Below, one piece after another: positions 3,402 to 10,633 of a stretch of DNA of 64,000 nucleotides (its first letter is position 1; each line of letters begins with the position of its first letter). Made by a program: the position numbers and the translations under genes. The notes beneath the pieces are model-generated. The model was not told the DNA's origin. It worked only from the letters and a program-made list of their open reading frames with translations, and searched no databases. Source of the DNA: an uncultured Bacilli bacterium. Its GTDB lineage: Bacteria > Bacillota_I > Bacilli_A > RF39 > UBA660. Location: positions 8,732 through 72,731 of the forward strand of contig CANROU010000003.1 of NCBI GenBank assembly GCA_947632325.1. Reading direction: 5' to 3'.

Positions 3402-3752
3402 TTAATCTTTTGGTTTAAAAAACAAAGCAAATATAAAAGTAAAGACAATAGCTGAGGTAATACCTGACGCTGTTAAATCAAACATGCCCATTACTAGACC
3501 AATAAAGCCAAAATCACTGGCTTTTTCTAATGCCCCATGAATTAACAAATGACCAAAACTAGTAATAGGTACTAGTGCTCCTCCCCCAACATGAGCTACT
3601 ATCATATCATAAATACTAAATGTATCTAGAAAAGCTCCTACTATTACAAAAATGCTGGTAATATGTCCAGGTGTTAATTTAGTATTATCTAAAATCAGTT
3701 GCCCAATTAAACAAACAAACCCGGCAAAGAGAAAAGAATATAGATAAATCAT
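3402..3752 (-). CDS. spoVAE: Stage V sporulation protein SpoVAE (VAEb type)
   Basis: GQLILD.TKLTPGHI, GGGALVPITSFG, C-terminal FKPKD; ATGA overlap with spoVAD. Confidence 0.92.
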   Translation of the reverse strand: MIYLYSFLFAGFVCLIGQLILDNTKLTPGHITSIFVIVGAFLDTFSIYDMIVAHVGGGALVPITSFGHLLIHGALEKASDFGFIGLVMGMFDLTASGITSAIVFTFIFALFFKPKD

Positions 3753-5255: not shown

Positions 5256-5924
5256 TTAAACACATAACTTATCTTTTAATTTCGTTAAAATTTTATTTTC
5301 TTTTCGTGATACTTGTACTTGACTAATACCTAATACTTGTGAAGTTTCTTGTTGTGTCTTATCTTCAAAATACCTAGTCATAATCAATTGTTGTTCCTCG
5401 GGTTCTAAATGTCGTAGTTGTTCCTTTAAATCTAAAATATTAGCATGATAGCCCTTTTCTTCCTGTTGAACAGCATCATATAAATTAATTTCCTTACCAT
5501 CATCCGCTAGAGAAAAATCTAAACTTCGTACAAATTCAGTAGCATTCTTTGCCTCTATTATTTTGCTTTCTTCTATCCCTAAAAACAATGATAATTCCGT
5601 ATAACTTGGTTCTCTCATTAATTTTTGCGTCAAACTTTCTTTGGCTTTTTCAATGGCAGCGTTTAATTTTAACATATCTTTACTGACCTTAATACTTTTA
5701 TCTTCTCTAATATATTTACAAACCTCTCCTAAAATATGCGAAAAAGCATAAGTAGAAAATTTAACACCATATTTATCATCAAAATGCCGATAAGCATATA
5801 ACAAGCCCATCATTCCCACTTGATATAAATCATCTTGATCATAAAAATGTTCATATTTTTTAATGATAGAATAAACAAGTCGTTCATTTTCCATTAATAC
5901 TTCAGCTTCCCTATCCGTAATCAT
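5256..5924 (-). CDS. sigF: Forespore sporulation sigma factor sigma-F (N-terminally shortened)
   Basis: DDLYQVG..GL, KFSTYA...I.GE, region 4 GISQVQVSR (sigF-type; sigG has QAQVSR); between spoIIAA and spoVAC. Confidence 0.85.
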   Translation of the reverse strand: MITDREAEVLMENERLVYSIIKKYEHFYDQDDLYQVGMMGLLYAYRHFDDKYGVKFSTYAFSHILGEVCKYIREDKSIKVSKDMLKLNAAIEKAKESLTQKLMREPSYTELSLFLGIEESKIIEAKNATEFVRSLDFSLADDGKEINLYDAVQQEEKGYHANILDLKEQLRHLEPEEQQLIMTRYFEDKTQQETSQVLGISQVQVSRKENKILTKLKDKLCV

Positions 5925-5933
5925 GGCATCCTC

Positions 5934-6263
5934 CTATATATTAATCATTTTAAAAACACCTAATTCATTACTACTTTGATAAAGATCATTAAATATAGTT
6001 CTTAATCCCTTATTATGCATACCACATAATACTAATTGACCATCAAAAGACAGTATTTGTTGATAGTTCTTTCTAATAGTATCAATTCCTTCTTCTGTTA
6101 TTTGGACTAATCCTGCTAAATTAAAGGTAAAATATCTAATGCCCTTCTCTTTTATCATTTTATCTATCTTACTAGTTAAGGTTTTGGACGTTTCTTTATT
6201 TAATACTCCTATCAAACGTATAAATAAAATTCCCCTCCTAAATTCCATATTTATCTCTAACAT
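5934..6263 (-). CDS. spoIIAA: SpoIIAA-like STAS anti-anti-sigma factor (divergent; phospho-Ser replaced by Glu)
   Basis: LFIRLIG.L...T, IR...FNL..L..I, G.LVLCG align to SpoIIAA; directly upstream of sigF. Confidence 0.8.
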   Translation of the reverse strand: MLEINMEFRRGILFIRLIGVLNKETSKTLTSKIDKMIKEKGIRYFTFNLAGLVQITEEGIDTIRKNYQQILSFDGQLVLCGMHNKGLRTIFNDLYQSSNELGVFKMINI

Positions 6264-6315
6264 ATTATCACCTCGCTCATTTAATATAGAATATATTTTT
6301 TATTAAATATACCTA

Positions 6316-6348
6316 TTCGACAAAACTTATGATTTTTTTCTGTCGACA
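6316..6348 (-). promoter_or_regulatory. Spo0A boxes upstream of spoIIAA
   Basis: Consensus TGTCGAA on minus strand at 6316-6322 and TGTCGACA at 6341-6348; spoIIA is Spo0A-activated in Bacillus. Confidence 0.65.
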
Positions 6349-7727
6349 ATTTTTTTTAAACTATAAACCATCAAGATTATCCCCAACAGTAATATAAGAA
6401 ACCAAACAATTTGTTTACTATTTAATTTCGATTGACTAGTAGAAACACTAATATCATTTTTATTAGCAATAGGCACTACTTTAGGTTTTTGTGTAGATTC
6501 TTTATTATTAGTATCTTCCTTCACACCATTAACTTCTTCTAACGCATAATCATAAATGATAGGAATTCTAACATGTAAACCTGAATATAAAATCTCAATC
6601 ATATATTGCCCTGGAACATTCCAATTGATATTATTACGAATCATCAAATTACTAATAGGAACTGTTGAATAAGTAATAATATCATCTACATCTAGATAAT
6701 TTTTAGTAATATGAATATCATCATTAACTATAATTTTTTCTCTTGACCTTTGATAATAAACAGAAATTTTATTCTCATCATCCCTTACCCAATTATCTAA
6801 ATATGAAAAAAAATAGTTATCAGTATAATCTCTTACCATTTGATAATACAAATATTTAGTATCCTGATAGCGATAATAAGTAACTGGTTCTAAAGGATAA
6901 ACATCAATACTTTTTGATACTTCTTCATCACTTTCATAAATAGTATCTTCCCAATGAGGATTAACCATATAATCTAACAATTTAATACGATCAATAAAAA
7001 CATCTCCTGGGCTAGAATGAATCCAATAAGCTCTTTTAGCCATAACATAATAATCATTATTAACGTAATCATTAACAGTAACAGTAAAATTAGAATCACC
7101 ACTATCCAAAGGATCAGCAATATAAACATTAATAGCTAAATCTTTTAAATCATACTTTTGTAATAAATCAAGGCGTAATTTATCACTAGGATATAAGTAA
7201 CTTAATTTAGTATCATCTTGCTTTGTATCATTATCATTAAACCACTCTAATTTTATATTAGAACAACCTTCACAACTAATATTAAAAGGTATTTTTTCGT
7301 TTTTATATAATACTTCAATTTCTGTAATCCACAACTTACCACCAGATCCAAGTGCATCAAAAATAGTAAGTGAATTAATCTGTTGTAATATTTGATAAGG
7401 ATAAACCGTCTTTTCTTCAATTACTCTATCTTCTTGCTCCTCTGGTTTTTCAATAGACCATAGTGAAAAATCCATAACTTTTTTCTCTAAACTTTTATAT
7501 GGATAATCAAGAGGATTTTCTAATAGTCCATAATAATCCTCCGTAAAATTTTGTCTTTCTTGATAAAACTTATATTTATACTCAACCTTACCTTCTTGTA
7601 GTTCCGTATTATCAACCATATTAGATGTTTCCTGCCAATCACCATAGGCACTATAAAACGTTTGGGCTCTAACTGTGTAAGATGTTAAACAAAGTAATAA
7701 TAAAAAGACGAGTATTTTTTTCATCAT
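6327..7727 (-). CDS. Hypothetical exported, C-terminally membrane-anchored Tyr-rich protein
   Basis: Signal peptide MKKILVFLLLLCL..VRA, C-terminal hydrophobic helix plus basic tail, RBS GAGGTG. Confidence 0.75.
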   Translation of the reverse strand: MMKKILVFLLLLCLTSYTVRAQTFYSAYGDWQETSNMVDNTELQEGKVEYKYKFYQERQNFTEDYYGLLENPLDYPYKSLEKKVMDFSLWSIEKPEEQEDRVIEEKTVYPYQILQQINSLTIFDALGSGGKLWITEIEVLYKNEKIPFNISCEGCSNIKLEWFNDNDTKQDDTKLSYLYPSDKLRLDLLQKYDLKDLAINVYIADPLDSGDSNFTVTVNDYVNNDYYVMAKRAYWIHSSPGDVFIDRIKLLDYMVNPHWEDTIYESDEEVSKSIDVYPLEPVTYYRYQDTKYLYYQMVRDYTDNYFFSYLDNWVRDDENKISVYYQRSREKIIVNDDIHITKNYLDVDDIITYSTVPISNLMIRNNINWNVPGQYMIEILYSGLHVRIPIIYDYALEEVNGVKEDTNNKESTQKPKVVPIANKNDISVSTSQSKLNSKQIVWFLILLLGIILMVYSLKKIVDRKKS

Positions 7728-7811
7728 CAATCACCTCAATACTATTCTTTGCACCTTAAAAGAAAAAACCTCTAAAAAATATCATTTTATATTTTTTTTA
7801 TGATAATAGAT

Positions 7812-7858: not shown

Positions 7859-8548
7859 TTATTTAGCGTGTTTTAAGCAAACAAAATATAACATAGATCC
7901 CATTACGATAATTATTATTCCCGCAAATGAATTATTAGATTTTACAATACCTGTATCTGGAACTTGAGCACTCGGCGTATTTTCTAAAGCTATTTCTCTA
8001 TTCCATAATAAACTACCACCGGCACGATCAGCTGTTAATGTTACTTTATAAGGATCAATGATTACTGTTACTGTTTGTTCATATGTGCCATCATTAGCCC
8101 AGTCAAAGTAAAATTTATATTCAATATTCGCTTGCTGTTTCACAGCAGTCAACAACTTATCCTTATTGATACCAACATAATAATCTCCATCTGAATAATC
8201 CTCTGGTGTTCCATTACCAACTTTTACTTTAGCTTTACCACCTTGTGCATTAACACCCGATGGTGCACTAATATGAAATCCCAACCATGCATAACCACTT
8301 GGCCTATTATCCTGTTCATTTAAGGTATTAACTTTTACTTCACCAAAACGCATTACCACATTTTGCGTCTCATTACCTGTGATATCTACTGAATAACCGT
8401 CTTCTTTATTCCATACAGAATCAGCATTTGATATATCCGTAATTTTACCATAAAGACTACTCTGGGCGTGTACTAAAATAATATTAGAACTAATAAATAA
8501 TATCGTTATGGTTAACATAGTAATATATGACATCCAATGTTTCTTCAC
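7859..8548 (-). CDS. Secreted cell-surface protein with LPXTG-like (VPDTG) sorting signal
   Basis: GTG start 8548 behind GGAGG; signal peptide ending VHA; VPDTG + hydrophobic helix + KHAK tail. Confidence 0.7.
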   Translation of the reverse strand: MKKHWMSYITMLTITILFISSNIILVHAQSSLYGKITDISNADSVWNKEDGYSVDITGNETQNVVMRFGEVKVNTLNEQDNRPSGYAWLGFHISAPSGVNAQGGKAKVKVGNGTPEDYSDGDYYVGINKDKLLTAVKQQANIEYKFYFDWANDGTYEQTVTVIIDPYKVTLTADRAGGSLLWNREIALENTPSAQVPDTGIVKSNNSFAGIIIIVMGSMLYFVCLKHAK

Positions 8549-8767
8549 TTTTTTACCTCCTTCCACTACTTTTAAGTATATAACCAATTAATATACAGCC
8601 ACAGCATTACTAAAATTTTATATACTCATTTATAGTATGGTTTCACTTTTAATTCCAATACAAAAATTTTTAAAAAAATTTTTTTAAATTTTAATTAAAA
8701 ATATTAAAAAACTAGTAATTCTTTTATAGTTTGTCTCAGTTATAGCTATAACATACAAAAATTACCA

Positions 8768-8805
8768 AAAAAATAACATCACTTTAAATGGTGATGCTGT
8801 TTTTT
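8768..8805 (-). terminator. Intrinsic terminator after hybrid kinase
   Basis: Minus strand AGCATCAC-loop-GTGATGTT followed by T-run. Confidence 0.65.
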
Positions 8806-10633
8806 ATAACATTTCATCAAGAATTAAACTAACTGTTTCTTGAAAGCGAATTTTAGTAAATGGTTTAGCAATATATCCTACGAATCCTTCACTTAAATAT
8901 TTCTCTTCTGCTCCTGCTTCTACATCGGCTGTTACGGCAATAACAGGTGTTTTAAATAAAGGATCCTCTTGTAATTTTTTTAAAGTTTCTACGCCATCCA
9001 TCTCAGGCATCATTATATCCATAAGAATCAAATCATAATTTGTTCCATTATGAATTTTGTCAATCGCTTCTTTCCCAGATGTACACTCATCTATTTCAAA
9101 ATTAAAATCAACTAATGCCATACGGGCAACTTTAATATTCAACTGATTGTCATCGACAATCAATACTCTCTTTTTTGTATGTTTTTTAAATGTAATATCT
9201 TCTTTAATAGCTTGCGTTTTAATAGGATTAATGTTTTTCTGTGGTAATTGAGCCATAAACAAGCTTCCTTTACCATATTGACTTTGTACGTTGATTTTAC
9301 CACCCATCATTTCAACCAAACTTTTGGTAATAGCAAGCCCTAATCCTGTTCCCTCTATCGTTGTATTTAATTCAACATCTAATCTCTCAAACTTATTAAA
9401 CAATTTATCAATATCCTTAGCTTTAATACCTCTACCTGTGTCTTCAACACTGATAAATAATAAACATTTTTCTTTATCATTGATACATTTGATAGTCAAA
9501 TCAACTGTTCCTTTATCTGTATATTTAATAGCATTGGTCAATAAGTTCATAATAATTTCTTTGACATGAACTTTATCACCCAGTAACCTTTCAGGAACAT
9601 CATCCGCTATAACATAATTTAGTTTAATAGGTTTTGATCCAATTTTAGATTGAACCATCTTAATTAAAATTTTTACCTCTTCTCTAAGATCATATTCCAC
9701 TTCTTCAAAAGTCATATGATTACTTTCAATACGATTAATATCCAATATATTACCAACAATCTCAACCAAAGTTCTTGATGCATCTAAAATATCTTCGTTA
9801 TTCTCCACCACATTAGATGGAAGTTGATCTTTATATGTCATATTATCTTCACTAAGTCCCATAATAGCATTAAGAGGTGTCCTAATTTCATGAGACATGC
9901 TTGATAAGAAATCACTCTTGGCTCGATTGGCCTTTTCAGCACTATCTTTGGCTAGATTTAATTGATCAATTAACTTTTTATCTGGATTTTCTATCGTAAA
10001 ATACATTGTATAGCAAATAAATGTTCCAATCATATTAGTAATTAAAATACTAGGATCTATAGAATTTAGCAAAGTCATAAATATTAAACATATAATTACT
10101 AAATATATTGGTAAGTATTTTTTATTTTTTAATTTTTTATAATTTATTAATAACAATATTACATATAAACTGATTTGAACAACAATATATCCTTTAAGCA
10201 CATCAAGTGCTAATCCTTCTATATACATTTTTGATGTATCATAATATCTGGTATATGGAGTAATAAACAAAATTACTGTAATAATTACTTCTACTAAAGC
10301 TACAAATATCTTACTTGTATGAATCTTTTTCTCATAATTCTTTTTTGCTCTATTAAAGCAAATAATAAATACATACATTGTAAATAAAGAATATGATATC
10401 GTTATAGAAATTAAATATAATCTGCAAATAATATCTACTAGTATATAATTTATTCCAAGAGTTCTAACCAATATTTGTAGAGGAATTTCAATCAAATATC
10501 CTATTAAATTAGCCATAAGTATATATTTAAAAATTTTATTTTCTTTAGAAGGAATAACCTCTTTTGGATAAAAAACTGCAATTAAAAGTATTATAAATAT
10601 AGCACCAGTTATTAGATAAATCAAATTCCACAT
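8804..10633 (-). CDS. Membrane-bound hybrid sensor histidine kinase/receiver
   Basis: ~7 TM N-terminus; H-box FLSSMSHEIRTPLN, N-box NLLTNAIKYT, G1 DTGRGI, G2 GTGLGL; receiver VDD...MDIMMPEMDG...KP. Confidence 0.95.
   Translation of the reverse strand: MWNLIYLITGAIFIILLIAVFYPKEVIPSKENKIFKYILMANLIGYLIEIPLQILVRTLGINYILVDIICRLYLISITISYSLFTMYVFIICFNRAKKNYEKKIHTSKIFVALVEVIITVILFITPYTRYYDTSKMYIEGLALDVLKGYIVVQISLYVILLLINYKKLKNKKYLPIYLVIICLIFMTLLNSIDPSILITNMIGTFICYTMYFTIENPDKKLIDQLNLAKDSAEKANRAKSDFLSSMSHEIRTPLNAIMGLSEDNMTYKDQLPSNVVENNEDILDASRTLVEIVGNILDINRIESNHMTFEEVEYDLREEVKILIKMVQSKIGSKPIKLNYVIADDVPERLLGDKVHVKEIIMNLLTNAIKYTDKGTVDLTIKCINDKEKCLLFISVEDTGRGIKAKDIDKLFNKFERLDVELNTTIEGTGLGLAITKSLVEMMGGKINVQSQYGKGSLFMAQLPQKNINPIKTQAIKEDITFKKHTKKRVLIVDDNQLNIKVARMALVDFNFEIDECTSGKEAIDKIHNGTNYDLILMDIMMPEMDGVETLKKLQEDPLFKTPVIAVTADVEAGAEEKYLSEGFVGYIAKPFTKIRFQETVSLILDEML

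Follow-up and report, generated by a model that had tools for sequence, protein, structure and literature searches.

A two-gene spoIIA-type operon

The window analysed here is a stretch of 64,000 nucleotides (nt) from an uncultured Bacilli bacterium of the order RF39, family UBA660 (assembly GCA_947632325.1, contig CANROU010000003.1, positions 8,732 to 72,731 of the forward strand; coordinates below are those of the window unless a contig is named). Its minus strand carries a gene for a SpoIIAA-like STAS protein, directly followed by sigF, the gene of sigma-F, and by spoVAC, spoVAD and spoVAE; spoIIAB is missing from between the first two. The features of the operon, with lengths in amino acids (aa), are the following:

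5934..6263, minus strand: SpoIIAA-like STAS gene, 109 aa, from open reading frame (ORF) calling; Pfam STAS model, 40.2 bits
5256..5924, minus strand: sigF, 222 aa, with Sigma70 regions 2, 3 and 4; TIGR02885, 198.2 bits
4747..5223, minus strand: spoVAC; PF03862, 113.9 bits, and TIGR02838, 150.2 bits
3749..4747, minus strand: spoVAD; PF07451, 421.4 bits, and TIGR02845, 419.7 bits, above its cut-off
3402..3752, minus strand: spoVAE; TIGR02839, 135.6 bits, above its cut-off
5930..5935, minus strand: ribosome-binding site AGGAGG of sigF, read from the sequence, sharing 2 nt with the STAS stop codon
5934-5936, minus strand: stop codon TAG of the STAS gene
5922-5924, minus strand: start codon ATG of the sigma gene

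A first-pass annotation of the window had given the span of the STAS-sigF pair (5256-6263), the 9-nt gap, the overlap of ribosome-binding site and stop codon and the downstream spoVAC-D-E genes, and ORF calling with Pfam and NCBIfam models confirmed all of them. Since only 9 nt (5925-5933) separate the STAS gene from sigF and the AGGAGG motif overlaps the STAS stop codon, the junction leaves no room for a remnant of spoIIAB. The sigma gene has the genomic context of sigma-F, 3' of a spoIIAA-like gene and beside spoVA.

The same spacing was found in related genomes. Within the family, 27 loci with a STAS gene were compared, and the sigma gene starts -23 to +21 nt after it in 25 of them; in the other two, sigF is cut by the contig end in one and metK lies between the genes in the other. 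A scan of public contigs returned 392 stretches with STAS relatives. Among the best 80 of these 392, which were analysed, sigF lies downstream of the STAS gene in 76 (at -26 to +29 nt in 74), and three of the four loci without sigF are ended by a contig edge. The arrangement recurs in the sister family, while three relatives that bear spoIIAB have STAS-sigF gaps of 426-488 nt. The recurrence of the tight spacing in 25/27 family loci and 74 of the best 80 public loci indicates that the arrangement is not due to chance. Read from the sequence, STAS and sigF are translationally coupled, with spoVAC-D-E next, and form a genuine operon of the spoIIA type, cut down to two genes.

Loss of SpoIIAB and SpoIIE

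Textbooks explain the start of a cell-specific programme upon asymmetric division by the switch made of SpoIIE, SpoIIAA and SpoIIAB. The kinase and the phosphatase of this switch were sought in this genome, a 1.05-Mb assembly of 35 contigs that is 93.65% complete. The SpoIIAB model TIGR01925 gave only four matches, of at most 34 bits and all within frames of 347-631 aa, and PF13581 (HATPase_c_2) gave nothing above cut-off; all ten GHKL ATPase domains of this genome lie in frames of at least 347 aa. For a SpoIIE-type phosphatase, TIGR02865 returned one 13-bit match and PF07228 none. This genome thus has neither the kinase nor the PP2C phosphatase of the SpoIIAA/SpoIIAB/SpoIIE partner-switching module. 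A second spoIIA operon was also considered and rejected, the sole other SigB/F/G-type sigma factor of this genome being SigG, on contig C7.

The searches were extended to 61 genomes of the class (37 from the family of the window and 24 from other families) and to 251 genomes of the order from 111 genera, each at least 90% complete. SpoIIAB scored above cut-off in 0/37 family genomes, compared with 7/24 from other families of the class. SpoIIE was found in 0/37 family genomes and 0/1 genome of the sister family, and in all seven SpoIIAB-bearing relatives, which are sporulating bacteria. SpoIIAB above cut-off was likewise absent from all 251 genomes of the order, where the five top matches reach at most 51 bits in frames of 406-434 aa; the same model scores 152-190 bits in the seven more distant SpoIIAB-bearing relatives. 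A hidden Markov model (HMM) built from these seven real SpoIIAB proteins revealed no SpoIIAB-like ORF in the best 80 public loci. Small genome size alone is insufficient to explain the loss, since the genome of G042, one of the SpoIIAB-bearing relatives, measures just 0.9 Mb.

Certain weak matches were inspected individually. One of the four in this genome (G000:C3:17994-18299) falls in a 609-aa ORF of the window (8804-10633, minus strand), which is not SpoIIAB and looks by eye like a hybrid histidine kinase that includes a receiver domain. The idea that the best sub-threshold frames, of about 420 aa, hide a SpoIIAB that is fused or anchored in the membrane was rejected after two of them, one here and one in a relative, were read and turned out to be ordinary histidine kinases with H-boxes.

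These results show that the joint loss of SpoIIAB and SpoIIE is true, ancient and order-wide, and not a relocation. The first-pass annotation had already argued that spoIIAB was lost and not moved, and its claim is backed by the profile searches of genome, family and order: no canonical spoIIAB and no second complete operon was found elsewhere in this genome, and HMM searches of the genome and its family found neither SpoIIAB nor SpoIIE. An artefact, with spoIIAB either overlooked by the models or located in the 6% of the genome that the assembly lacks, is hardly credible. It could draw on the incompleteness of the assembly, which is split into 35 contigs, and on the seeming lack of sigE, a gene that both genus-mates carry. 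Against it stand the 9-nt junction, with no space at the canonical spoIIAB site, the 0/251 count from a model that detects seven distant relatives at 152-190 bits, and the failure of the HMM made from real SpoIIAB proteins to find any in 80 further loci.

The sigma factor, the STAS protein and their promoter

The sigma factor belongs to group 3, and its best model is that of SigF (TIGR02885, 198.2 bits), ahead of SigG (144.3 and 126.8 bits) and SigB (118.1 bits), with a score below the TIGR02885 equivalog cut-off of 321.45. The closest solved structure is sigma-F in 1L0O_C (141.8 bits). A quick maximum-likelihood tree was computed from 75 sigma factors, comprising 25 linked to a STAS gene, 7 spoIIAB-linked SigF, 30 SigG, 10 SigE and 3 further sigmas of this genome. 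Those linked to a STAS gene cluster together (88 in the Shimodaira-Hasegawa-like approximate likelihood ratio test, SH-aLRT) inside the clade of the spoIIAB-linked SigF (93), which is sister to SigG (98); three outgroup SigF rows of this tree are truncated by locus ends and sit on long branches. End branches are much longer for sigF (0.11-1.46) than for sigG (0.04-0.33). The sigma factor on contig C7 reaches 368 bits with the SigG model, and the ORFs after it resemble ylmC and yunB by eye. The earlier assignment of the sigma factor of the window to SigF, and not to SigG, therefore stood up to the phylogeny, which places it inside and not outside the SigF clade. A sigF-type sigma factor (profile E <=1e-57) is present in 216/251 genomes of the order.

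The STAS protein is closest to SpoIIAA. Its best named model is SpoIIAA (TIGR02886), with 39 bits against an equivalog cut-off of 114.75; it has only three solved matches, all of them SpoIIAA chains, 1TH8_B and 1AUZ_A being the best, and its N-terminal block is common to the SpoIIAA of G042. The phosphorylation motif is changed. Where SpoIIAB-bearing relatives have M-D-S-S-G, the protein of the window reads I-T-E-E-G (E57, E58), and none of the 105 STAS copies of the group has the DSSG motif. Serine or threonine occupies the first serine column in 7/105 copies and the second in 8/105, and the residues seen most often are I, L and M in the former column and K in the latter. The G-E-L-D motif keeps its Asp in 7/105. 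The first serine of DSSG is probably the phosphate acceptor, judging from the D-A-S-G variant chain 1TID_B and from the numbering of SpoIIAA, whose acceptor we take to be Ser58. A phosphomimetic role of E57 and E58 was rejected as a general rule, because these columns mostly hold I/L/M and K across the group. Of the two flanking proteins that, in the first-pass annotation, appeared to have lost their SpoIIAB contact residues, the STAS protein has lost its phosphorylation motif.

Selection on the two genes was estimated from the ratio of non-synonymous to synonymous substitution rates (dN/dS), calculated by the Nei-Gojobori method on pairs that are not independent of each other. The median was 0.10 for STAS (134 pairs, range 0.035-0.249), which indicates that the gene is not decaying and is under purifying selection, and 0.13 for sigF (76 pairs). 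At two loci, L035 (G003) and L136, metK is inserted between STAS and sigF. The STAS copies of these loci are 91% identical, with a dN/dS of 0.096, so STAS stays constrained even when uncoupled from sigF.

The STAS profile matches 192/251 genomes of the order, and two 0.8-Mb family members without sigF and sigG also have no STAS gene and no spoIIR. Conversely, sigF occurs without an intact adjacent STAS gene in G016 (L188), G019 (L187) and G023 (L186), and in genus g79, where sigF is found in 7/7 genomes and STAS in 0/7. In these genera without an adjacent STAS gene, sigF is mostly followed by spoVAC-D. A 380-nt gap marks the expected STAS position in G023, and G016 keeps no more than a piece of STAS, which contains a stop codon and lies on a different contig. 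The role of the STAS protein would thus be useful but dispensable, since several genera dropped it and kept sigF.

These observations bear on two other views of the STAS protein. In the first, it would itself regulate sigma-F directly, by binding to sigma-F or RNA polymerase as an anti-sigma, chaperone or delivery factor. In line with this view, the two genes stay tightly coupled across more than 100 genera, are under similar constraint and disappear together; we know of no precedent, however, for a STAS domain that binds a sigma factor directly, and with sigF standing without STAS in several genera we judge the idea quite improbable. In the second, the STAS protein would be the antagonist of a non-homologous anti-sigma-F encoded elsewhere, and would be switched by something other than serine phosphorylation, for example a ligand, redox state or localisation. 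The strong purifying selection on STAS, its translational coupling to sigF in nearly all loci and its joint loss with sigF from asporogenous family members are consistent with such an antagonist, and STAS antagonists independent of phosphorylation are, to our knowledge, found elsewhere (mycobacterial RsfA). Nevertheless, all STAS antagonists that we know of target anti-sigma factors of the GHKL type, and this genome has no GHKL protein of suitable size; no conserved candidate gene lies within the operon, and the genera with sigF and no STAS again speak against it. We consider a hidden anti-sigma factor unlikely, less so than direct regulation by the STAS protein.

The region upstream of the STAS gene holds the following promoter elements:

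6316..6322, minus strand: TGTCGAA, an exact match to what we take to be the 0A-box consensus of Spo0A, 53-59 nt 5' of the STAS start codon
6342-6348, minus strand: second copy of the box, TGTCGAC, with 6/7 matches, read from the sequence
6283..6312, minus strand: promoter core, with GTATA (6308-6312), an 18-nt spacer and CTATATTA, which includes the -10-like TATATT (6283-6288)

Within 200 nt upstream of STAS, 63/79 related loci have an exact forward box, and 54 of these 63 have it in the -60..-51 bin; among random windows drawn from these loci, a box was present in a mean of 2.9/79 and a maximum of 9. Anchored on the box, 64 loci give the consensus tCTAgTTTTGTCGAA...gTaTaaa....tgtgcTAaaTTa. 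The positional conservation of the 0A box marks this region as a predicted Spo0A-activated promoter. The GTATA located 18 nt upstream allows a forespore-type reading, which resembles the conserved GTATA-N18-CA(n)TATA element that stands before the sigG genes of the family (L153 and others among L144-L173). A loose forespore pattern was found in 41/80 upstream regions for 1.2 expected, an excess that serves as a lead and not as a test, because the upstream regions are homologous. Upstream of spoIIR in this genome, no match was found to the pattern that we take to be the consensus of sigma-F-type promoters.

Control of sigma-F, sporulation and comparison with known systems

The endospore genes present in this genome comprise spo0A, spoIIR, sigG, a sigK-type sigma factor, spoIVA (SpoIVA, 711 bits) and spoVAC-D-E. 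Among 36 relatives of the family, spo0A was found in 35, spoIIR in 34 and sigG in 33. Three other genes or proteins, sigE, spoIIGA and SpoIIIAE, were sought in this assembly and not found. A sigma factor on contig C12 (2402-3202) was tried as sigE and rejected, since it scores 306.5 bits as SigK against 215.4; it is the sole SigE/K-type sigma factor here. Both genus-mates carry sigE (about 308 bits), so that its lack here is likely an assembly gap. The earlier statement that the sporulation genes of the window look intact has to be qualified, since sigE and spoIIGA were not found in the assembly, probably because of such a gap. In a sister-family genome (G037:C28:9933-10674) the spo0A match is in two pieces with an in-frame TAG between them, so that the gene may be a pseudogene or the TAG may reflect recoding or an error in sequencing.

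The two-gene spoIIA operon is ancestral to the order (RF39, family UBA660), which keeps Spo0A, sigma-F, SpoIIR, sigma-G, SpoIVA and SpoVA and in which the phospho-acceptor motif of SpoIIAA has decayed. Because the kinase and the phosphatase are lost while sigma-F and the STAS protein are kept, the sigma-F switch must work differently here. The reading that we favour, with a probability of roughly 0.55, is that sigma-F was freed from phosphorylation-based partner switching and came under control at the level of its synthesis, with the STAS protein as an accessory. Most likely, the conserved Spo0A-box promoter would set sigma-F synthesis and be the main level of control, and sigma-F would act at once upon being synthesised. 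Self-amplification may be added by a sigma-F/G-type element within the same promoter, and the orphan STAS protein may have a phosphorylation-independent accessory role tied to sigma-F.

Several points weigh against this reading. Loss of spoIIAB is deleterious in B. subtilis. Sequence data bear neither on the manner nor on the existence of a restraint on sigma-F before septation, and homology searches cannot reveal a non-homologous anti-sigma factor. The promoter assignment is ambiguous, as the -10 region can be read as a housekeeping extended -10 or as a forespore-type -10. The constraint on STAS is as strong as that on sigF, which argues for an important and not merely accessory role. This genome is 93.65% complete and every relative is a draft metagenome bin; sigE and spoIIGA were not found in the assembly, and we have seen no cultured member, sporulation being a prediction from gene content. 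Finally, a machine-learning study gives RF39 genomes a sporulation probability of 0%, according to the portion of its text available (PMC12536801). In the same portion, all 63 predicted sporulators of the classifier have spoIIAB, so that it may be biased against this lineage.

The low score is part of the case for a decaying or lost sporulation programme, in which the STAS-sigF pair would be either a relic or a module put to use in another differentiation or stress programme. The genomes are extremely reduced (0.6-1.6 Mb), sigF, sigG, spoIIR and STAS are all gone from some family members, and SpoIIIAE, SpoIIGA and sigE are the proteins not found in this assembly. Decay is, however, difficult to reconcile with purifying selection on both STAS and sigF, with the retention of spo0A, spoIIR, sigG and sigE in most of the family, and with the intact SpoIVA and spoVAC-D-E. 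The possible bias of the classifier against a lineage without spoIIAB tells against it as well. Furthermore, RF39 is predicted to sporulate in the accessible part of a 2024 survey (PMC10868615), and in the excerpt available of another study RF39 sequence variants were passed along with spore-formers on eggshells (PMC7028958), a circumstantial indication. Taken together, these points make decay highly doubtful.

Within the favoured scheme of synthesis-level control, we tentatively propose a stronger version in which there would be no anti-sigma factor at all. The promoter would be primed by Spo0A, sigma-F would amplify its own synthesis through the embedded GTATA-N18-C(T/A)A(A/T)ATT element, and the STAS protein would be re-employed on sigma-F or RNA polymerase, independently of phosphorylation. 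We regard this version as unlikely, on a par with the hidden anti-sigma factor. If true, endospore formation would offer a natural design of minimal complexity for switching on genes in one cell type.

Upstream of the operon, two further genes are recorded as context:

6327..7730, minus strand: 467-aa protein, no Pfam family, bearing a signal peptide and anchored in the membrane by its C-terminus; not claimed for the switch
7859-8587, minus strand: 242-aa protein, no Pfam family, likewise with signal peptide and C-terminal membrane anchor

The 467-aa protein is fast-evolving, and a single BLAST query found homologues of it as the immediate upstream neighbour, on the same strand, in at least 28/80 loci; the 242-aa protein has a homologue in only 1/80 related loci. 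The former was set aside as a substitute for SpoIIE, being almost entirely extracytoplasmic. Its position is that of dacF in B. subtilis, and in G019 an ORF that looks by eye like a D-alanyl-D-alanine carboxypeptidase replaces it.

Compared with the spoIIA operon of Bacillus and Clostridium, the STAS and sigF genes are orthologous (as supported by 1TH8 and 1AUZ, by 1L0O and by the SigF clade), their order is the same, spoVA lies downstream and a Spo0A box upstream. The setting is also alike, with spoIIR and sigG present, two genes whose place in the B. subtilis cascade is after sigma-F. In contrast, spoIIAB, SpoIIE and a phosphorylatable DSSG are all lacking here, STAS and sigF are directly coupled across 9 nt, and neither protein reaches its NCBIfam equivalog cut-off. 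As far as we know, mycobacterial RsfA is likewise a STAS antagonist that works without serine phosphorylation, but it still targets an anti-sigma factor of the RsbW/SpoIIAB type, none of which is present here. A large and widespread gut lineage of small-genome Bacilli that keeps sigma-F, the STAS protein and the cascade under selection in the absence of both enzymes is thus a natural experiment on the minimal needs for sigma-F control. Classifiers that rely on spoIIAB will label the order as non-sporulating, which bears on the prediction of sporulation in uncultured gut bacteria.

In the literature, we found no paper analysing this operon, its STAS protein or its promoter. The available text of a comparative study (bioRxiv 10.1101/2022.02.25.481979) describes Erysipelotrichaceae and Planococcaceae, related Bacilli that lost many sporulation genes and still sporulate. 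The lack of SpoIIIAE in our searches of this assembly resembles the loss of most SpoIIIA components that it reports for these families. The same text treats SpoIIAB and SpoIIE as universal core genes of endospore-formers; unlike that core set, the present lineage has neither. The bare loss of spoIIAB and spoIIE is already in print, as the 2024 survey, in its accessible part, lists both among the genes reduced or absent in order RF39 (PMC10868615). To that one-sentence statement of presence and absence, the present analysis adds the structure of the operon, the fate of the STAS protein and of its phosphorylation motif, the selection acting on both genes and the promoter.

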